Part shown: in pieces, positions 2,688-17,130 of the stretch | Layout of the letters: each line of letters starts with the position of its first letter | How positions within the stretch are numbered: position 1 is the stretch's first letter | From: Candidatus Taylorbacteria bacterium RIFCSPHIGHO2_12_FULL_45_16 | GTDB lineage: Bacteria > Patescibacteriota > Minisyncoccia > Phycocordibacterales > PALSA-1337 | Assembly: GCA_001821055.1 (NCBI GenBank) | Contig: MHRT01000004.1 | Location: 5,548 to 69,547 of the forward strand | Direction: 5' to 3' | DNA length: 64,000 nt | Translations under genes and position numbers: made by a program | The notes under the pieces: model-generated | What the model was told of the DNA's origin: nothing | Seen by the model: only the letters and a program-made list of their open reading frames with translations | Database searches by the model: none

Positions 2688-4103
2688 ATGAACCTCGGCA
2701 AGAAAACCAAGATAGTTTGTACTATCGGACCCGTAACCGAAAACCTGGAAAAAATCACCGAACTCATCGACGCCGGAATGAATGTCGCACGTCTTAATTT
2801 TTCGCATGGTGATTTTGCTGAGCACCAGAAGCGCGTTGATAATATCCGTGAAGCCATGAGAAAGACCGGTAAGACCCTGTCCATTCTCCAAGACTTGTGT
2901 GGACCGAAAATCCGCATTGGGACATTCAAGGACAAAATGATCACTCTCCATCAAGGCCAGACCTTCACTTTGACGACCGACGAAGTTGAAGGCGATGAAA
3001 ATAAAGTTCACATCAATTATCCGCAACTGCCTCAGGAAGTTAAAAAGGGAAGTATTATCATGCTTCAGGACGGTAGCAAGCGTTTGGAAGTCTTGGAAAT
3101 TAAAAGCCACGACATTATCACCAAAGTCATGATTGGAGGAAGTCTTTCCGGCCGCAAAGGTGTCAATGTGCCCGGCGCCAACTTGTCACTTTCCGCCTTG
3201 ACCGACAAAGATCGAGCCGATGTCGCGTTTGGCGTCAGAAATAGCGTTGATTTCGTAACCCTTTCTTTTGTCCGTCGCGCCTCCGACATTACTGATTTAC
3301 GCAAAATTCTTGATGACGCAAAGTCTGATGCCCACATTATCGCGAAGATAGAAACACCAGAAGCTCTAGATTGTATAGATGAAATTATTTCCGCTGCCGA
3401 CGGTATCATGATTGCCCGAGGCGATTTGGCTATTGAGATTCCAGCCGAAGAAGTTCCGTTGGTGCAGAAGCTCATCATTTCAAAATGTAACGCGGTCGGT
3501 AAACCGGTGATTACCGCCACGCAGATGCTGGAGTCAATGGTCAAGAATCCAGTCCCGACCCGAGCCGAAGTCTCCGATATTGCCAACGCCATCATCGACG
3601 GTACCGATGCCATCATGCTTTCGGAAGAGACGACACTTGGGGACTTTCCGATTGAAGCGGTCAAAGTCATGACCAAAGTCGCGGCCCGTGTGGAAAAAGA
3701 AATATACACTCGGGATACAATTGCCGGATATAGACCACCGCACGGCGTAACGGATGTAGTCTCGCAATCTGCCGTGCGTTGTGCTCACAATGTCGAAGCT
3801 GCTCTAATTGTCGCCTTGACTCGTTCAGGTCGTTCCGCCCGGATGATCGCTCGGTATCGTCCGGCGGAGCCAGTGTTGGCCCTTTCTGACAACCAAGCTC
3901 ATGCCAACAAATTGATGCTGACATTCGGTTGCTATCCGATGGTTGCGCCGACATTCAAAACGGTTGATGAGATTATGGAAATTGTGCGCAAAGTCACTCT
4001 GGATACTGGACTCGTCAAAAAAGGGGATAAAGTGGTGATAGTCGCCGGAATGCCATTTGGTACCGCGGCGGAGACGAATATGATTTTAGTGGAGACACTT
4101 TAA
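2688..4103 (+). CDS. pyk: Pyruvate kinase
   Basis: Full-length match to the PK family: 'KTKIVCTIGP', 'ARLNFSHGD', 'MIARGDLAIEIP', and a C-terminal alpha/beta domain. Length 471 aa. Confidence 0.9.
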   Translation: MNLGKKTKIVCTIGPVTENLEKITELIDAGMNVARLNFSHGDFAEHQKRVDNIREAMRKTGKTLSILQDLCGPKIRIGTFKDKMITLHQGQTFTLTTDEVEGDENKVHINYPQLPQEVKKGSIIMLQDGSKRLEVLEIKSHDIITKVMIGGSLSGRKGVNVPGANLSLSALTDKDRADVAFGVRNSVDFVTLSFVRRASDITDLRKILDDAKSDAHIIAKIETPEALDCIDEIISAADGIMIARGDLAIEIPAEEVPLVQKLIISKCNAVGKPVITATQMLESMVKNPVPTRAEVSDIANAIIDGTDAIMLSEETTLGDFPIEAVKVMTKVAARVEKEIYTRDTIAGYRPPHGVTDVVSQSAVRCAHNVEAALIVALTRSGRSARMIARYRPAEPVLALSDNQAHANKLMLTFGCYPMVAPTFKTVDEIMEIVRKVTLDTGLVKKGDKVVIVAGMPFGTAAETNMILVETL

Positions 4104-4222: not shown

Positions 4223-4957
4223 ATGCAGAAGAGCATGTACATTATTCCCGATACTACGCTTATTCTCGATCGCCGCCCTCGTGAGTACCCACTCATCTTC
4301 AGGGACCTGCCGGCCAACGAGAAGCCACGCGAAAAGCTTCTGGCTTACGGCCCGGAGGCTCTTTCTATCGCCGAATTGACGGCCCTTCTGCTTGTGACAG
4401 GGACTACCAGAGAGGATGTCCTGGAAATGTCCACACGCCTTGTTCGTGAATATGGAGAGAAAAGTGTTTTTGCTGGGCGAGACCCGGAGAAATTATCCAA
4501 AGAGTTAGATGTGCCAATAGTCAAGGCTTGCGCCATTGTCGCCGTGGGAGAATTGGGTAGACGATTGTATGAACATTCCGAGTCGGGTTTCAAGACCATT
4601 AGAAATGCCAAAGACGCCTACGAATATCTCGTGGACATGCGCAATCTACCTAAGGAACATTTGCGTGGACTATACCTCAATAGCCATAACCGGATTATAG
4701 CCGATGAAGTGATTTCGATCGGCACCGTGAATGCCAATGTCATCCACGCCCGCGAGGTATTCCGTCCGGCTATCGAACGCAATGCCGTGGCCGTTATCTT
4801 GGCACACAATCATCCGTCCGGCGAGTCCACGCCCAGCCTTGAAGATATCACCATTACCAAACAGCTTGTCCAAGCGGGGAAGATATTGGGCATCCGTGTT
4901 TTAGATCATGTCATCATCACCAAGGACGCATTTATGAGTGTGAGTGCGGACTACTAA
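4223..4957 (+). CDS. radC: RadC-like JAB/MPN-domain protein
   Basis: N-terminal 'EKPREKLL' helix-hairpin-helix-like region and the C-terminal JAMM motif 'ILAHNHPSGESTPSLEDI'. Confidence 0.8.
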   Translation: MQKSMYIIPDTTLILDRRPREYPLIFRDLPANEKPREKLLAYGPEALSIAELTALLLVTGTTREDVLEMSTRLVREYGEKSVFAGRDPEKLSKELDVPIVKACAIVAVGELGRRLYEHSESGFKTIRNAKDAYEYLVDMRNLPKEHLRGLYLNSHNRIIADEVISIGTVNANVIHAREVFRPAIERNAVAVILAHNHPSGESTPSLEDITITKQLVQAGKILGIRVLDHVIITKDAFMSVSADY

Positions 4958-13020: not shown

Positions 13021-13329
13021 GGATGAGGAATTGATTGTGAATTTAGAATGGGAAGGAATATAATCAGACTTGCCAAGTTGAATAAATGAATATGCCCTTA
13101 AATATAGCTCAAAATATGGAGTTTGATGAGAGTTGACAGGATAGTGTTTTGGGTGTATAACTGTGGGCAGAAAATTAGGGTCAAGAACCTTGATATGTTG
13201 TTGGTTTCGGGACCGCATCCGTGGATATTCCGTGGCTGTGTTTCCGTGACCAATGACCAATCGATAAGGCGTATCAGGCTCTTTGATAGAGGTGATATTG
13301 CTACGACCAATCTTGACACGGAATCAACT

Positions 13330-14010
13330 ATGAGAAATCCAACATTAGCACAGACGGGCGGTTTGGCCGGAAGTATTGGCGACGATCTTCGTCAGATTCA
13401 AGACCAGCTTGACGGCGAAAGAATCCAGCTGGCACTGAATAATCCGGATCACCCGTTTCGGCAAGGAGTCGTAACACTTGCACTTGCACAGTTTTTCGCC
13501 GTCACATGGACCGAGAAAGGTAGTATCATCCACGTCACCTTCATCTCCAATGGTTGGAGTGGTCCCGAGTGGAAAGAGCACTTCAAAAAGAAAGGCGTCC
13601 AGTTGTCGCCTAACGCGTTGGAAATCTTGGACTCCACGGAGTTCAAAGCTTCAAAGGCAGGAACTGTCCGGCAAGTTGCTCTCCTCAAGGGTGAACTGTT
13701 CAACGAGTCGGATCGTATTACCAGCAAAATTCGCGCCAAGGCTGCCGAACTCAAGTTGAAGACTTTGGACATGGAAGTTATTTGCCTCATCCGTGACACA
13801 TTCTCCAACGCGGAGATCAACAAAATGGGGTTTTTGTGGATCGTCGGCATGCATGACTCTGTCGAAATTGGCGGCGATTTGAGCCTTCTCACGGCGGTTG
13901 CCTACGGCGTTGTTCCGGGGCTCGAGGCGCTCTACGACCGTCCCGACTTCAGGTGGTATCGTGAGGGTGGCTTTGCCTTCGCTGTCCAGCAAGTAGAACT
14001 CAAGGCTTAG
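13330..14010 (+). CDS. DGR target (variable) protein with a C-terminal VR. An alternative in-frame start at 13123 is possible.
   Basis: The C-terminal 42 codons form the VR. The template-encoded version (..NANDDVPRLETNYDNPDNRWNRENGFAFAV..) carries the Asn (AAC)-rich signature seen in C-type-lectin-fold DGR variable regions. Confidence 0.7.
   Translation: MRNPTLAQTGGLAGSIGDDLRQIQDQLDGERIQLALNNPDHPFRQGVVTLALAQFFAVTWTEKGSIIHVTFISNGWSGPEWKEHFKKKGVQLSPNALEILDSTEFKASKAGTVRQVALLKGELFNESDRITSKIRAKAAELKLKTLDMEVICLIRDTFSNAEINKMGFLWIVGMHDSVEIGGDLSLLTAVAYGVVPGLEALYDRPDFRWYREGGFAFAVQQVELKA
13868..13994 (+). repeat. DGR variable repeat (VR)
   Basis: A 127-bp match to 14985-15111 with 19 mismatches. At every mismatch the other copy has A and this copy has G, T or C. 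Confidence 0.85.
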
Positions 14011-14050
14011 TGTCTAGGCACTCTCAAGCCCTAAACACTTTGCCCTTTCG

Positions 14051-14076
14051 CCCCTCACCTGCACGCAGGTGAGGGG
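14051..14076. promoter_or_regulatory. GC-rich perfect hairpin (11-bp stem, CACG loop), 57 nt downstream of the VR
   Basis: cccctcacctg-cacg-caggtgagggg. This is either the DGR homing-enhancing hairpin or the left-end hairpin of the IS200-like element. Confidence 0.5.
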
Positions 14077-14187
14077 CTGATTATTATCCGTAAAAACCCC
14101 CACCTTTAGGTGGGGTGTACGTCTGAAGGCGAAGCCGTATGCTAAAGCCGTCCGGCAGGACGGCTCTTAGCAATTAATCATACGCCT

Positions 14188-14646
14188 ATGTCACAACACA
14201 AACGTACGATACGCACATTATCACATTGTTTCTACGATATTAAGTACCACCTAGTCTGGACTCCCAAATACCGTGGCAAGGTATTGGGAGCCGACAAGGT
14301 AAAGAGTGAACTGCGACGGATCTTCGAAACCATCACCAAGTGGAAGCACTGGGAGATCATCGAACTCAACATCCAGGAAGACCACATACACCTGTGCCTC
14401 CTTGCGACACCGAGAGATTCAGTCTCTTACATCATGCAAATTCTGAAAGGGAAATCCTCCGCCTGGATGAAGAAGAAGATTAAGCGTACCCACGGACTCT
14501 ATGAAAAAGAAAGTCTCTGGGCACGAGGATATTTCGTCTCGACAATCGGCCTAGATGAGCACCTCATCCGCCGGTATGTTAAGCACCAATCCCACCACAA
14601 TGAAGTAGACCAACCATCACTGTTTGCCAAGCTGTTACCTAAGTAA
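14188..14646 (+). CDS. tnpA: IS200/IS605-family Y1 transposase TnpA
   Basis: 'YHLVWTPKYR', the HUH motif 'HIHLCLLATP', 'ILKGKSSAWM', and the catalytic-Tyr region 'WARGYFVSTIG'. Length 152 aa. Confidence 0.85.
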   Translation: MSQHKRTIRTLSHCFYDIKYHLVWTPKYRGKVLGADKVKSELRRIFETITKWKHWEIIELNIQEDHIHLCLLATPRDSVSYIMQILKGKSSAWMKKKIKRTHGLYEKESLWARGYFVSTIGLDEHLIRRYVKHQSHHNEVDQPSLFAKLLPK

Positions 14647-14984
14647 ACCACAGTCGCCCTGCCGGCACAGCCGGCAAACACAAAGCCACCAGACCTAAGT
14701 CTGGTGGTTGGTTACTGCATGAAAATGGTACAATTGTGTCGGTAGTAGGTGAATATGTACGTGACCACAGGTCACGTACCACCGAATCCAGTATCCATGC
14801 ATCGAGAATGTTCTGGATCATGATCTAGGGCAGAGTGGTGCGTGAACTCTAAAAAATGGAGATACTTGGTATAGGGTGTTAGAGCATTAGTTTGGCAGGT
14901 TATCCTACCGAATGATATGACGAAAACAAAGGTGAGCCCCGAGAGTATTCAAGGGGTAGTCGCATGGATGACATTCTATACACA

Positions 14985-15111
14985 TTGACGGCGATTTGAA
15001 CCTTCTCACGGCGAATGCCAACGACGATGTTCCGAGGCTCGAGACGAACTACGACAATCCCGACAACAGGTGGAATCGTGAGAATGGCTTTGCCTTCGCT
15101 GTCCAGCAAAT
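14985..15111 (+). repeat. DGR template repeat (TR), non-coding
   Basis: Adenine-rich copy of the VR, lying immediately 3' of avd and 427 nt upstream of the RT ATG. Confidence 0.85.
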
Positions 15112-15115
15112 CCTT

Positions 15116-15460
15116 TCATTTCTCCCCGACTTTAGTAGTCGGGGAGTTTTGTTTCTCCTGAAGATATTTTTCATTTTGACCATACCATCCACCGAGCATT
15201 TTTCCGATGTCATTTGACGGTTCAGATATCATCAGATATTTTTTGTTATCTATCGAACCTATTTCCCAGGCGACTTGCATGAGAATTTTCATCGTCTCGA
15301 GTTTGCTGATGGCCTGTCTAATCCACGGACTCTTCTTGTCTTTTGGCAGAAATGCCGCCGTAGAGACTGACTCGATGGTGTCTATAAATAGCAGATCTAT
15401 CCTAACACCCAAAGAATATTTAGATGTTTTCGGGAATAATTTTATAACATCCTGCCACAA
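15116..15460 (-). CDS. avd: Avd-like accessory variability determinant (four-helix-bundle family, TIGR02436-like). The apparent start codon is TTG.
   Basis: 'FPKTSKYSLGVRIDLLFIDTIESV' and 'SKLETMKILMQVAWEIGSIDNKKYLMISEPSNDIGKMLGG' match the conserved helices of Avd and the 23S-IVS four-helix-bundle proteins. Confidence 0.6.
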   Translation of the reverse strand: MWQDVIKLFPKTSKYSLGVRIDLLFIDTIESVSTAAFLPKDKKSPWIRQAISKLETMKILMQVAWEIGSIDNKKYLMISEPSNDIGKMLGGWYGQNEKYLQEKQNSPTTKVGEK

Positions 15461-15520
15461 TTTGTAGGCACCAATGGCCTTTGATAGAGCGGGAATTACT
15501 TTCGGTTGTTGAAATCCGTT

Positions 15521-15530
15521 GGGGGGGGGG
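15521..15530. repeat. G10 homopolymeric tract, 8 nt upstream of the RT ATG
   Basis: gggggggggg. Candidate slipped-strand phase-variation site and Shine-Dalgarno-like element. Confidence 0.9.
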
Positions 15531-15537
15531 TAGACTT

Positions 15538-16551
15538 ATGAGTATGCGACGAATCCAATGTAATCACACCTACGAGGATATCATATCTATGGAAAATCTG
15601 CTTGAAGCGTGGAAGGAGTTTGTATGCGGAAAAAGAAAGCGGAGTGACATGCAGGAATTTCAACTTAAACTTTTTGAGAATATCCACAGACTTCACTCTG
15701 ACTTAAAGGACAAGTCTTACAAACACGGCTGTTATACGCCTTTCAAAATCAACGACCCAAAGCCTCGTGATATTCACAAAGCCCTCGTGCGAGATCGGCT
15801 TCTTCATCATGCACTGTATCGGAAGTTGTATCCATTTTTTGACCGAACATTTATTTCGGATTCATATTCATGTCGGAATGACAAGGGGACGCATAGAGCC
15901 TTGGACAGGTTTGGCGATTTCGCCTATCGAGCTTCGTGGGGACATACAAAAACGGTCTGGGTTTTGAAATGCGACGTCAAGAAATTTTTCGCTTCCGTAG
16001 ATTATGAAGTTTTGTTTGGAATTCTCGAGAAATATATTCCGGATAAAGATGTTATGTGGTTGATCCGGGAAATCGTCGGTAGTTTTCATTCGACGAAAGA
16101 AGGTGTCGGATTGCCTCTGGGGAATCTAACCTCGCAATTATTTGTGAACATCTACATGAATGAGTTTGATCAGTTTGTGAAGCATAGATTAAAAGAGAAG
16201 TGGTATATTCGATATGCTGATGATTTTGTGATTCTTAACCAAGATAGAAAATGGCTTGGACATGCCCTTGCGGAAACCCATCGTTTTTTGGAGCAGAAAT
16301 TACATCTTACTCTTCATCCAAATAAAATAAGCATTAGAACTTTCGCTGGAGGAGTTGATTTTTTGGGTTGGGTTCATTTTCCTACACACCGTGTGCTACG
16401 GACGGCGACTAAAAGGAGGATGTGGAGGAATGTTGAGGTGAAGAAGATGTTGAATAACGCGGACACATTACAGTCGTCAATTCAGTCGTATATGGGGATG
16501 TTGAGTCACGGAGATGCGTATAAATTGCAGGCTGTGATAAGAATGGATTGA
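15538..16551 (+). CDS. Diversity-generating retroelement reverse transcriptase
   Basis: RT motifs 'KCDVKKFFASVD', 'GLPLGNLTSQLFVNIYMNEFD' (with the DGR-specific xGxxxSQ in place of the QG of group II and retron RTs) and 'YIRYADDFVIL'. The N-terminal 'DSYSCRNDKGTHRAL' is DGR-type. There is no maturase or endonuclease domain. Confidence 0.85.
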   Translation: MSMRRIQCNHTYEDIISMENLLEAWKEFVCGKRKRSDMQEFQLKLFENIHRLHSDLKDKSYKHGCYTPFKINDPKPRDIHKALVRDRLLHHALYRKLYPFFDRTFISDSYSCRNDKGTHRALDRFGDFAYRASWGHTKTVWVLKCDVKKFFASVDYEVLFGILEKYIPDKDVMWLIREIVGSFHSTKEGVGLPLGNLTSQLFVNIYMNEFDQFVKHRLKEKWYIRYADDFVILNQDRKWLGHALAETHRFLEQKLHLTLHPNKISIRTFAGGVDFLGWVHFPTHRVLRTATKRRMWRNVEVKKMLNNADTLQSSIQSYMGMLSHGDAYKLQAVIRMD

Positions 16552-16586
16552 ACGATCTAAGACACTGTGCTAGGATAAAATCATCT

Positions 16587-16889
16587 ATGAATACCACTCA
16601 CAAAGGTTCAATTCGATGCATTATTTTCAAGGATGGCGCTACTTGGTATGGTGTTGCGCTTGAGTTTAATATTGTGGAATCAGCCGACGATGCCGACGTA
16701 GTAAGATTTAATCTAGATGAAGCCATTCAGGGCTATGTGGAATCCCAGAAAAAACTCAAAGGTACGCGTGTCTCACCTCTCAATCAAAAACCAATGAAAG
16801 AGTATGCTGATTTGTGGAATAATCTGGTGACGGATAAAGCTATTCCGAGCCCATATAAAGTCAAATCTTTCGGTTTTACTAAAGTCTAA
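16587..16889 (+). CDS. hicB: HicB-like antitoxin (UPF0150 / RNase-H-like fold)
   Basis: 'WYGVALEFNIVESADDADVVRFNLDEAIQGYVE' matches the HicB N-domain pattern. It is followed 10 nt downstream by hicA. Confidence 0.5.
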   Translation: MNTTHKGSIRCIIFKDGATWYGVALEFNIVESADDADVVRFNLDEAIQGYVESQKKLKGTRVSPLNQKPMKEYADLWNNLVTDKAIPSPYKVKSFGFTKV

Positions 16890-16899
16890 GTTAAAAGCT

Positions 16900-17130
16900 A
16901 TGCCGAAAGGAGCATTCAACTGGACGTTCAATGATGTCGTGGCCGTGCTCAAAGAAAATGGTTTTCATTTGAATCATATCAAAGGAAGTCACTATTTTTA
17001 TGTTGGTTACATTGACGGCAAGGCTCGACAGGTCTGTGTCGCCAAACATGGCAAAATCTCATTCAAACCAAGAACTTTCAAGGGAATGATGGAGCAATCT
17101 GGGCTTTCCAGAGATAAGTGGGGATTATAA
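16900..17130 (+). CDS. hicA: HicA-like mRNA interferase toxin
   Basis: 'VLKENGFHLNHIKGSHYFY' matches the HicA/YcfA dsRBD-like 'GSH' motif. Length 76 aa. Confidence 0.6.
   Translation: MPKGAFNWTFNDVVAVLKENGFHLNHIKGSHYFYVGYIDGKARQVCVAKHGKISFKPRTFKGMMEQSGLSRDKWGL

Follow-up and report, generated by a model that had tools for sequence, protein, structure and literature searches.

In a lineage of Candidatus Taylorbacteria, an IS200-group insertion sequence (IS) very probably transposed into the noncoding linker of a DGR on the chromosome, leaving the DGR intact and seemingly active. As reconstructed here, the IS would have entered 3′ of a TTAT tetranucleotide, 6 to 9 nt past the terminator-like hairpin that closes the target gene. 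The insertion would have spared the target gene, the hairpin, the conserved spacer, the template repeat (TR), avd, and the RT gene, and adenine-specific diversification of the VR would have continued afterward. Because a related genome has the same gap without the IS and the DGR appears to be working, we regard the case as an ordinary secondary insertion and not as a new kind of system. Coordinates below are those of the window, i.e., the whole 64-kb stretch of DNA that was analyzed.

The DGR locus and its native spacer

The DGR target gene (13126 to 14010, + strand) is an ORF of 294 aa that carries the VR (13867 to 13992) at its C-terminal end; its product had no Pfam family and no NCBIfam match. 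The TR (14984 to 15109, + strand) is 94% identical to the TR of locus L010 from a related genome (GCA_964602725.1), and all of the internal VR/TR mismatches (20/20) are at TR adenines. The RT gene (about 15528 to 16551, + strand; ORF, 15481 to 16551) encodes YADD and LGNLTSQ motifs, and its product matches Pfam RVT_1 (E value, 2.3e-20) and is 74% identical to the L010 RT. On the strand opposite to the TR and RT lies avd (15116 to 15460, − strand; 114 aa), with matches to Pfam bAvd (E value, 3.7e-09) and NCBIfam DivGenRetAVD (4.8e-13) that were both below the curated cutoffs. The original prediction had described canonical DGRs as having avd and little else in the VR-TR interval. In this lineage, avd is instead downstream of the TR on the opposite strand, and the native interval never contained it.

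Downstream of the VR, at a distance of 57 nt, is a host hairpin, H1 (14050 to 14077, + strand), with a 13-bp GC-rich stem (range, 12 to 13 bp), the loop CACG, and a T-rich linker behind it. Judged from its sequence, H1 is a terminator-like hairpin of the target gene; it may be the VR-downstream hairpin of the DGR as well, with a putative role in homing. Both L010 and L011 have kept H1 with compensatory stem changes (loops ACAG and GTAA, respectively), and H1 falls beyond the limits of homology with other IS copies. The idea that hairpins of the IS had replaced the DGR downstream hairpin does not hold, since H1 is intact, conserved in these two loci, and outside the IS.

The native noncoding spacer upstream of the TR (14716 to 14983, + strand) is likewise host sequence and contains hairpin H6 (14757 to 14779; 10 bp). 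It is collinear with positions 3488 to 3733 of L010, with an identity of 88% over 14716 to 14800 and, from the alignment, about 97% over the last ~60 nt; coding DNA of the two loci is 69 to 72% identical. A search of the locus against Rfam gave no match at the gathering score. A weak partial match to Rfam RT-7 was present in the spacer (14802 to 14867; 22.5 bits versus a gathering score of 116.8), and a terminator-like Rfam match followed the TR (20 bits).

An orthologous locus without the IS

Searching all fetched loci by tblastn with the RT, Avd, and target proteins identified only L010 to L014, as loci with relatives of the target protein, and L032 (see below); L010 and L011 may be one sister clade. 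The orthologous DGR locus of L010 has no tnpA, and its junction is clean, with no target duplication. Its gene order (MraY, a 258-aa ORF, target, 452 bp, avd [− strand], RT [+ strand], ATP-grasp, and TP_methylase) is syntenic with the window, and in its gap the target gene, hairpin, spacer, and TR follow one another uninterrupted. With a slash marking the junction, the empty site reads …GGGGCTGAATTT/TGCAT…, i.e., GGGGCTGAATTT/TGCATAAAAATG, and the window reads GGGGCTGATTAT(TAT)-IS-TGCATGAAAATG at the same site. An empty junction of the window locus would read GGGGCTGATTAT(TAT)TGCATGAAAATGG. The comparison with relatives that had been proposed as a check thus yielded an uninterrupted target-spacer-TR-avd-RT order, and it bore out what the original prediction had offered as its alternative reading, namely, that the IS separated the VR from the TR secondarily.

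Without the IS, the native VR-TR interval is noncoding, conserved, and about 345 nt long; with the IS, the VR-TR distance increases from about 490 to 1,117 bp. We infer that the event was a gain here and not a loss in L010. Gain here and loss there would cost one event each, because IS200/IS605 elements excise precisely.

Boundaries and anatomy of the IS

The IS extends from 14088 (±3) to 14715 on the + strand (about 628 to 631 bp), with a left end that is uncertain by 3 nt (14085 to 14088). DNA homology to five other copies (L005 to L009) spans about 14083/14091 to 14717, and copies having different right flanks set the right end at ...GKTTAC. On the left, the IS lies 3′ of the flanking tetranucleotide TTAT (14084 to 14087, + strand; alternative, 14081 to 14084). 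An IS between VR and TR had been called correctly, but it does not fill 14011 to 14984: the other copies and L010 confine it to the bounds given above. The suggestion to define the ends by aligning copies succeeded with L005 to L009. Blastn and tblastn searches of the 64-kb window detected no further copy of the IS or of TnpA. The element has neither terminal inverted repeats nor a target-site duplication, it lacks tnpB, and tnpA is its single ORF.

At least six perfect hairpins had been described as flanking tnpA. Six exist in the VR-TR region; four (H2 to H5) belong to the IS, and the first and last (H1 and H6) are host/DGR sequence. The left-end subterminal hairpin H2 (14098 to 14115, + strand; 8 bp; CCCCACC TTTA GGTGGGG) is terminator-like on the − strand, shows compensatory changes over 28 family members, and is the presumed binding site of TnpA. 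It is followed by H3 (14140 to 14172, + strand), a stem-loop in the 5′ untranslated region (5′-UTR) with a core at 14146 to 14165 (8 bp; about 14 bp when extended). Beyond H3, an outer pairing of 14133 to 14146 with 14174 to 14187 abuts the tnpA ATG, ahead of which no Shine-Dalgarno sequence is evident. RNAalifold analysis of 28 IS left ends detected compensatory changes in 17 of 26 pairs, and because of this covariation, we describe the internal anatomy as IS200-like.

Downstream of the tnpA stop, H4 (14660 to 14676, + strand; 7 bp) is kept in relatives with altered stem bases. The right end (14682 to 14715, + strand) consists of AAAG, H5 (14686 to 14707; 9 bp), TTGG, and the terminal TTAC (14712 to 14715). 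Here, the base 5′ of the hairpin foot covaries with the last terminal base (AAAG/TTAC in 12 copies; AAAA/TTAT in 3 copies and L009), in a set of few and possibly related copies.

The combination of a Y1 transposase with several perfect palindromes around it, together with a weak match to a RAYT model (E value, 2.3e-08), might also indicate a domesticated REP-associated tyrosine transposase (RAYT), the flanking hairpins being REP/BIME repeats. The RAYT model (NF047646) scored 34.1 bits against a cutoff of 80, however, whereas the IS200 equivalog model scored 125 against 55. Moreover, clade members form a discrete element of 613 to 654 bp that moves as a unit and includes the hairpins as conserved parts, and none of the six hairpin sequences was repeated elsewhere in the 64-kb window. 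With the model score under its cutoff and the palindromes not dispersed in the window, the RAYT/REP identity was rejected as extremely improbable.

The TnpA protein

The tnpA gene (14188 to 14646, + strand) encodes an intact Y1/HUH transposase of 152 aa. The original prediction of a Y1 HUH transposase was confirmed by Pfam Y1_Tnp (PF01797; E value, 3.8e-33; 114.6 bits versus a cutoff of 23), by the NCBIfam IS200 equivalog (NF033573; 125.3 bits versus a cutoff of 55), and by the presence of HIH, with H66 and H68 forming the HUH motif. Relatives in the PDB include IS608 TnpA (E value, 1.5e-18), to which the HUH motif and a Y-x3-Q stretch were aligned. The catalytic tyrosine had been sought in RGYFVSTIG (Y115), which proved to be a misassignment: it is Y130 in RRYVKHQ that aligns with IS608, with Y130...Q134 lying opposite the ...VVKQYIENQ... 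stretch of IS608 TnpA. Y130 is therefore the predicted catalytic nucleophile, with Q134. In IS608, the reference system for the mechanism of single-strand transposition by Y1 enzymes, Y127 of TnpA is the nucleophile and Q131 is a metal ligand. The catalytically dead IS200 TnpA in use is a Y125F mutant (PMC4513863). By this assignment, the IS would transpose as single-stranded DNA ("peel and paste") via a circular single-stranded intermediate, in which the right-end-to-left-end junction would read ...GGTTAC/CCGTAAAAACC....

The IS and DGR activity within the species

The IS was present in every sampled genome of the species, including five NCBI MAGs, and tnpA had no sequence variation among these genomes. 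All of the contigs read after an exact-protein lookup of TnpA (24/24) carried the same locus; no second site was found for the exact protein, the nearest relatives being at most about 90% identical. The IS is thus single copy within the species.

Over 2.6 kb, five near-identical IS-bearing contigs differed at eight positions, i.e., six VR positions opposite TR adenines, one SNP, and one difference in the length of a G run. Ten target protein variants differed only at four VR codons, and the VR variation involves 6 of about 22 adenine sites, in all combinations. VR differences confined to positions of TR adenines suggest a DGR that is still functional; on these sequences, the IS-bearing DGR apparently still diversifies its VR in an adenine-specific manner. 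Part of the VR variation could be explained by recombination between two older haplotypes and not by ongoing homing.

A gapped pattern scan of metagenome contigs for an IS-free allele of the same species gave 0 hits. This null result is uninformative because the collection lacks these samples, as it holds not even the occupied allele. The right-end pattern, scanned against metagenome contigs, matched only three, which carried another IS (79% identical); the known JGI contig was not among them.

These population data also bear on whether the insertion, although secondary, changes the homing frequency, either by read-through into the spacer and TR or by uncoupling the TR from target-gene transcription. 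Read-through would be possible given that the IS, target, and TR share one orientation and that no terminator-like hairpin was called on the + strand at the IS right end, where the hairpins have no T run on that strand. In addition, H1, which lies upstream, resembles a terminator, and the population is fixed for the IS and shows modest VR diversity. However, no promoter-like site was found in the IS or reading out of it on the + strand, and TR expression would be independent of the IS because L010 keeps the same conserved spacer without it. We therefore consider an effect on homing improbable.

A stronger competitor takes the IS for an immobile relic of the kind that most IS200 copies in Salmonella represent: it would look intact, effectively never transpose, and be kept only because it is neutral past a terminator. 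Its single copy in the species, with the exact TnpA at one site only, a 5′-UTR structure in which the start region is predicted to be buried, and the very low transposition known for IS200 (PMC4513863) are all in keeping with such a relic. Nevertheless, the element retains an intact ORF with its HUH/Tyr motifs as well as two intact ends, and the clade is multicopy and breaks assemblies in other genomes. Immobility is thus a possibility to be reckoned with, though a somewhat doubtful one.

Relatives of the IS and their insertion sites

More than 900 close TnpA homologues were found, the majority on contigs about 1 kb in length. The left-end box of the IS recurs at 75 loci, which come from many Patescibacteria as well as from other phyla and include several copies in certain genomes. 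Some genomes hold at least 7 to 9 contig-end copies of the clade, the same IS occurs in different flanks, and relatives of tnpA sit between unrelated housekeeping genes. The window itself fits the left-end box pattern, yet a scan of genome contigs with that pattern yielded none from Taylorbacteria. A DGR was present within 8 kb of the IS at only 1 of the 75 other loci (L032), and there the IS lies about 1.7 kb past the RT, in the direction opposite to the TR and VR, with none between VR and TR.

This distribution bears on the case of a co-opted tnpA, i.e., a conserved component of this DGR type that might, for example, process single-stranded cDNA or nick the target beside the VR hairpin. Such a role would accord with a tnpA that adjoins the VR-proximal hairpin and is fixed and invariant in all sampled genomes of the species, as well as with the report that IS200/IS605 transposases are the family most often near cyanobacterial DGR variable proteins (PMC7517822). 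Yet the closest orthologous DGR (L010; RT, 74% identical) has a clean empty site without tnpA, the DGR of L032 has no tnpA between VR and TR, and the element itself has complete IS ends. Because about 75 related IS copies lie in unrelated contexts, tnpA is not a DGR component, and we give co-option next to no credence. The syntenic, conserved tnpA that would have argued for co-option is absent from the L010 cassette and from the L032 VR-TR interval. Nor does the association with an ssDNA/cDNA mechanism, which had been singled out as notable, appear to be specific, given the copies between housekeeping genes, the 1 in 75 loci near a DGR, and a hairpin preference that probably explains the site.

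IS200-like elements had been credited with little target specificity, which is wrong for this clade. Of 76 independent insertions, 68 had a host hairpin 0 to 12 nt upstream of the IS, with the IS 3′ of TTAH (hairpins counted at left flanks were those of ≥7 bp whose end was no more than 12 nt from the IS). Such hairpins were present at 7.3% of 2,202 random TTAH sites and at 11% of T-rich TTAH sites. None of 25 right flanks had one, so the association is limited to the left side. The left flank carried TTAH at 70 of the 76 sites (TTAA, 30; TTAT, 21; TTAC, 19), and inspection for covariation of the fourth TTAH base with the left-end "guide" base revealed no clear pattern. The host hairpins are outside the IS, differ in sequence at each site, and have a modal distance of 8 nt.

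From these sequences, the site rule of the clade would be a host hairpin, a short T-rich linker, and TTAH, an arrangement that resembles the IS right end (hairpin, 4 nt, TTAC); at the present locus, the corresponding target would be H1 plus TGATTATTAT. The hairpin preference may be a matter of mechanism or an outcome of selection. A mechanism in which the transpososome, acting on single-stranded DNA, uses sites that mimic the IS right end (stem-loop, linker of about 4 to 8 nt, TTAH) is a tentative proposal that we think rather unlikely. If true, it would provide a structural rule for target choice by Y1 transposons, would make strong extruded hairpins (i.e., intrinsic terminators and post-VR DGR hairpins) landing pads, and would account for the frequency with which IS200/IS605 elements, more than any other transposons, are seen beside DGR target genes.

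Implications

The locus suggests that a DGR can tolerate a foreign insert of about 630 bp, with a VR-TR distance more than doubled being compatible with continued adenine-specific variation. TR-derived cDNA is able to act at a distance; because this is already known, the case is unsurprising, and useful as a natural control. It also carries a warning for annotation, in that hairpins and ORFs between VR and TR should not be assigned to the DGR before comparison with relatives. Of greater value is the by-product, an IS200 clade that is widespread, occurs mainly in Patescibacteria, and has a host hairpin at about 90% of its sites, on the left side only. Its insertion-site set offers clean data for testing whether target choice by Y1 transposons involves reading DNA structure, and its pattern carries further a statistical trend that had been published earlier for the IS200/IS605 family.

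Comparison with known systems

Like IS200 of Salmonella and other Enterobacteriaceae, the IS has tnpA only, encoding a TnpA of 152 aa, and neither inverted terminal repeats nor a target duplication; at 628 to 631 bp versus 707 bp, it is about 80 bp shorter. Its first left-end hairpin, H2 (near nt 11 to 28), is terminator-like as in IS200 and matches the position of the left-end inverted repeat of Salmonella IS200 (nt 12 to 34; PMC4513863). In both elements, a long 5′-UTR inverted repeat abutting the start codon comes next, so that H3 is analogous to the Shine-Dalgarno-sequestering stem-loop of the IS200 5′-UTR (PMC4513863). Unlike IS200, the present IS has no Rfam match at the gathering threshold and no evident Shine-Dalgarno sequence, and its clade is hosted mainly by Patescibacteria and inserts very consistently beside host hairpins.

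With IS608 of Helicobacter pylori, the IS shares a homologous TnpA and insertion 3′ of a TTAC-like tetranucleotide. AAAG 5′ of the hairpin foot matches a terminal TTAC, and AAAA goes with TTAT, as expected for the pairing of guide and cleavage site that Barabas et al. reportedly described for IS608 in 2008. Unlike IS608, the IS has no tnpB, and TTAC, the left-flank target of IS608, is found here at the right end.

The DGR resembles that of Bordetella phage BPP-1 and other canonical DGRs in its adenine-only TR/VR mismatches, Avd, RT with YADD, and GC-rich inverted repeat past the VR. The target hairpins of phage DGRs have a GC-rich stem of 7 to 10 bp and a 4-nt GRNA loop and are located 4 to 34 bp after the VR (PMC3240598); H1, in contrast, is 57 nt after the VR and has a stem of 12 to 13 bp and a loop (CACG; ACAG and GTAA in relatives) that misfits GRNA. 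The locus further differs from canonical DGRs in its avd downstream of the TR on the opposite strand, its conserved noncoding VR-TR spacer of about 345 nt, and the IS in that interval.

Among elements that insert beside stem-loops, group IIC introns and REP-targeting ISs are comparison cases. Terminator-like sequences are overrepresented immediately ahead of ISs, the effect being strongest for IS200/IS605, a trend that was read as limiting transposase expression in a study in which host hairpins were not resolved from the IS left-end hairpin (PMC13548323). The present clade follows this trend with one-sided insertion, directly 3′ of a stem-loop that resembles an intrinsic terminator. Here, however, the host hairpins clearly lie beyond the IS, and their distance (mode, 8 nt) is like that at the IS right end. 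The work of Tobes and Pareja (2006) adds nothing on IS200 targeting.

Finally, IS200/IS605 transposases occur within ±10 kb of DGR variable proteins in cyanobacteria and have been discussed as a means of dispersal (Vallota-Eastman et al. 2020, PMC7517822). Unlike those cases, the IS described here is located exactly between VR and TR, and the empty site shows it to be a passenger.

Layout of the DGR

The region holds a complete diversity-generating retroelement (DGR). The target gene (13126 to 14010, + strand; 294 aa) belongs to no known family, and the part of its 3' end that encodes the C terminus is the variable repeat (VR; 13867 to 13992, + strand). The template repeat (TR; 14984 to 15109) lies on the same strand, 1,117 bp downstream, and a comparison of the two repeats placed 20 of 20 internal mismatches at TR adenines. 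Directly after the TR comes avd on the opposite strand (15116 to 15460, − strand), with Avd homologue scores (bAvd, E = 3.7e-09; NCBIfam Avd, E = 4.8e-13) that are both under the curated cutoffs, and then the reverse transcriptase (RT) gene (about 15528 to 16551, + strand; RVT_1, E = 2.3e-20). The layout differs from that of canonical DGRs in that avd is inverted and downstream of the TR. Likewise, the hairpin downstream of the VR departs from the phage-type pattern, in which a 4-nt GRNA loop lies 4 to 34 bp from the VR (PMC3240598).

Three further features of the neighborhood were recorded. A 10-bp hairpin (15122 to 15146), followed by TTTTGTTT on the + strand, begins 13 nt past the TR, overlapping the avd 3' end, and is conserved in L010, a syntenic relative (GCA_964602725.1); it could be a terminator or a structural part of the TR RNA, in which case the TR RNA would be made without cotranscription of the RT. 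The intergenic region between avd and the RT gene contains a G-run (15514 to 15521) of 8 G in the window and 7 G in the near-identical population contigs L001 to L004, a difference that could reflect a sequencing or assembly artifact or a phase-variable tract by divergent promoters. After the RT gene, a 113-aa ORF and a HicA toxin homologue (PF07927; E = 1.7e-09) occupy 16548 to 17130, where L010 has only a 72-aa ORF; the pair looks like a second lineage-specific addition.

Identity and boundaries of the inserted element

Between the VR and the TR, the ORF at 14188 to 14646 (+ strand; tnpA, 152 aa) unambiguously encodes a Y1/HUH transposase, with profile matches to Pfam Y1_Tnp (E = 3.8e-33) and the NCBIfam IS200 equivalog (125 bits; cutoff, 55). 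In an alignment to TnpA of IS608, the Helicobacter pylori model, the tyrosine of ...KQYIENQ... aligns with Y130 in RRYVKHQ. The segment RGYFVSTIG, originally taken as the catalytic Tyr region, is a conserved strand and not the nucleophile. A RAYT identity was rejected for the element (model score, 34 bits; cutoff, 80).

More than 900 close TnpA homologues (77 to 91% identity) were found, mostly on contigs of ~1 kb, as expected of a repeat that breaks assemblies. In five related copies (L005 to L009), DNA homology to the window extends only from about 14083/14091 to 14714-14717. Copies of one IS in different flanks (L006, L007, and L008, with a solo right end in L007; L090 to L092 for another variant) set the right end exactly at ...GKTTAC, i.e., at window position 14715. 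On the left side, the copies have in common a flanking TTAA, TTAT, or TTAC and a left-end hairpin 8 to 10 nt further on. The window IS thus starts at 14088 (TTAT|CCGTAAAAACC), although a start at 14085 would keep length parity with the empty site, and these ends give a length of 628 to 631 bp (family full copies, 613 to 654 bp). It contains neither terminal inverted repeats nor a second gene. All six perfect hairpins of the original prediction exist, but only H2 (14098 to 14115), H3 (14146 to 14165), H4 (14660 to 14676), and H5 (14686 to 14707) are inside the IS, while H1 (14050 to 14077) and H6 (14757 to 14779) are outside. In all its testable traits, the element belongs to the IS200 group (family IS200/IS605).

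Several variant copies were observed in the clade. L007 carries a solo right-end fragment (3 to 127) 3.7 kb from a full copy, and L054 has a left end partly duplicated in tandem (about 4600 to 4712; ...TTACATCTATAAACCCCCACCTTTAGGTGGGGTGTACGTTACATCTATAAACC...). L006 and L007 agree in the IS and right flank but not in the left flank, suggestive of a rearrangement at the IS. Seven loci (L023, L025, L033, L050, and L072 to L074) have the left-end hairpin and conserved box in common and diverge fully past about nt 55; they may be other subfamilies or nonautonomous derivatives with the same left end.

Empty site and native spacer

Two syntenic relatives, L010 and L011, were identified through homologues of the target protein. 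L010 (identity to the window: target, 64%; RT, 74%) has the gene order MraY, 258-aa ORF, target, 452 bp, avd (−), RT (+), ATP-grasp (−), and TP_methylase; tnpA is absent. Its junction reads ...GCCCCGTACTTTCACAGGAAAGTACGGGGCTGAATTT|TGCATAAAAATGCTAC..., compared with ...GCCCCTCACCTGCACGCAGGTGAGGGGCTGATTAT(TAT)[IS]TGCATGAAAATGGTAC... in the window. To the left and right of the IS, the flanks remain collinear, with no duplication. L010 therefore provides the empty site, and the alternative that the IS secondarily parted the VR from the TR proved correct: the finding is an ordinary secondary IS insertion into the DGR spacer. If L010 and L011 are sisters, a gain in the window lineage and a loss in theirs are equally parsimonious. 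The IS is present as a single copy in the species and may no longer be mobile.

L011 (SRR12487013; 6001 to 6800) keeps the target gene with its VR-like 3' end and hairpin. The TR, avd, RT, and HicA module are all missing and the ATP-grasp gene is directly next; the whole DGR cassette thus comes or goes as one unit in this lineage.

Across the three genomes, the H1 stem has diverged at several positions with pairing preserved, which marks H1 as a conserved host structure; it scored as terminator-like. Within the interval, the IS occupies the few nucleotides that are least conserved. On its other side, the spacer at 14716 to 14983 is 88% identical to L010 over 14716 to 14800 and about 97% identical over the last ~60 nt (read off the alignment). 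Since coding DNA is only 69 to 72% identical, this spacer is native to the DGR rather than part of the IS. Judged by this conservation, it is probably functional DGR sequence, perhaps the promoter of the TR RNA or a structured segment at the 5' end of that RNA. A weak, partial Rfam RT-7 match was seen at 14802 to 14867 (22.5 bits; gathering score, 116.8).

Diversification with the IS present

In the Candidatus Taylorbacteria population of the Rifle aquifer, the IS occupies the same site in every contig examined, including five NCBI MAGs. Five IS-bearing contigs differ at eight positions over 2.6 kb, six of which lie in the VR opposite TR adenines (13871, 13877, 13882, 13883, 13957, and 13958), the others being an ordinary SNP and the G-run length change. 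Ten target-protein variants (five haplotypes) differ only at residues 249, 251, 253, and 278, and the VR variation includes dinucleotide changes. Because every genome with this adenine-restricted variation carries the IS, the sequences indicate that VR diversification continued after the insertion. Variation is confined to 6 of about 22 adenine sites, and part of it may therefore stem from recombination of older haplotypes.

Distribution of the IS clade

IS200/IS605 transposases were earlier reported near DGR variable proteins (PMC7517822). On long contigs, TnpA relatives lie between unrelated genes (e.g., pyruvate kinase/topoisomerase I and pilin/DUF1003). A scan for the conserved left-end box (one genome per species) recovered 75 loci, mostly in many classes of Patescibacteria, with others in Kiritimatiellales (at least 7 copies), Bdellovibrionales, Omnitrophota, Alphaproteobacteria, and Gammaproteobacteria; this occurrence in distant phyla implies horizontal spread. 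Some genomes in the scan had 7 to 9 copies at contig ends. The same scan returned no Taylorbacteria contigs, though the window fits the pattern. A DGR was within 8 kb of just 1 of the 75 loci (L032), where the IS is 1.7 kb past the RT on the side opposite the TR/VR. The tnpA gene is not a DGR part.

Insertion site choice and comparison with known elements

An alignment of left flanks covered 76 independent insertions (L005 to L089 and the window). In 68 of them, the IS begins 0 to 12 nt 3' of a hairpin of at least 7 bp and also 3' of TTAA, TTAT, or TTAC, compared with hairpins at 7.3% of 2,202 random TTAH sites from the same loci and 11% of T-rich TTAH sites. These hairpins, usually GC-rich with T's after, differ in sequence throughout and are therefore host DNA; when only the best hairpin of each flank was counted, in a coarser tally, the commonest gap from hairpin foot to IS start was 8 nt. 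The window obeys the rule exactly (H1, TGATTAT, TTAT, IS). None of 25 right flanks had a neighboring hairpin. The IS right end itself mirrors the target geometry (hairpin, 4 nt, TTAC), and T is the first base past the terminal TTAC or TTAT in 23 of 25 distinct right flanks (L015 to L092); the preferred target may extend one base past the cleavage point. This near-universal, one-sided adjacency is the only part of the finding with some wider interest. A 2026 survey found terminator-like sequences over-represented directly upstream of ISs, most strongly for IS200/IS605, and read them as a limit on transposase expression (PMC13548323). In our clade, the cause may be target recognition or selection.

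The left-end anatomy matches that of Salmonella IS200 (PMC4513863), whose first inverted repeat (nt 12 to 34) acts as a transcription terminator and whose second, within the 5' UTR, masks the ribosome-binding site. In our clade, H2 and an extended H3 (14140 to 14172) were supported by RNAalifold over 28 left ends, where 17 of the 26 pairs showed compensatory changes. In the window, an outer pairing recognized as an inverted repeat (14133 to 14146 with 14174 to 14187) extends to the ATG. At the right end, covariation links the base 5' of the hairpin foot to the final base of the terminal tetranucleotide (AAAG/TTAC in 12 copies; AAAA/TTAT in 3, plus L009 from a separate alignment). The covariation is as predicted by the IS608 guide/cleavage-site model, but the A/T copies may represent a single lineage, and the base could just lengthen the stem.
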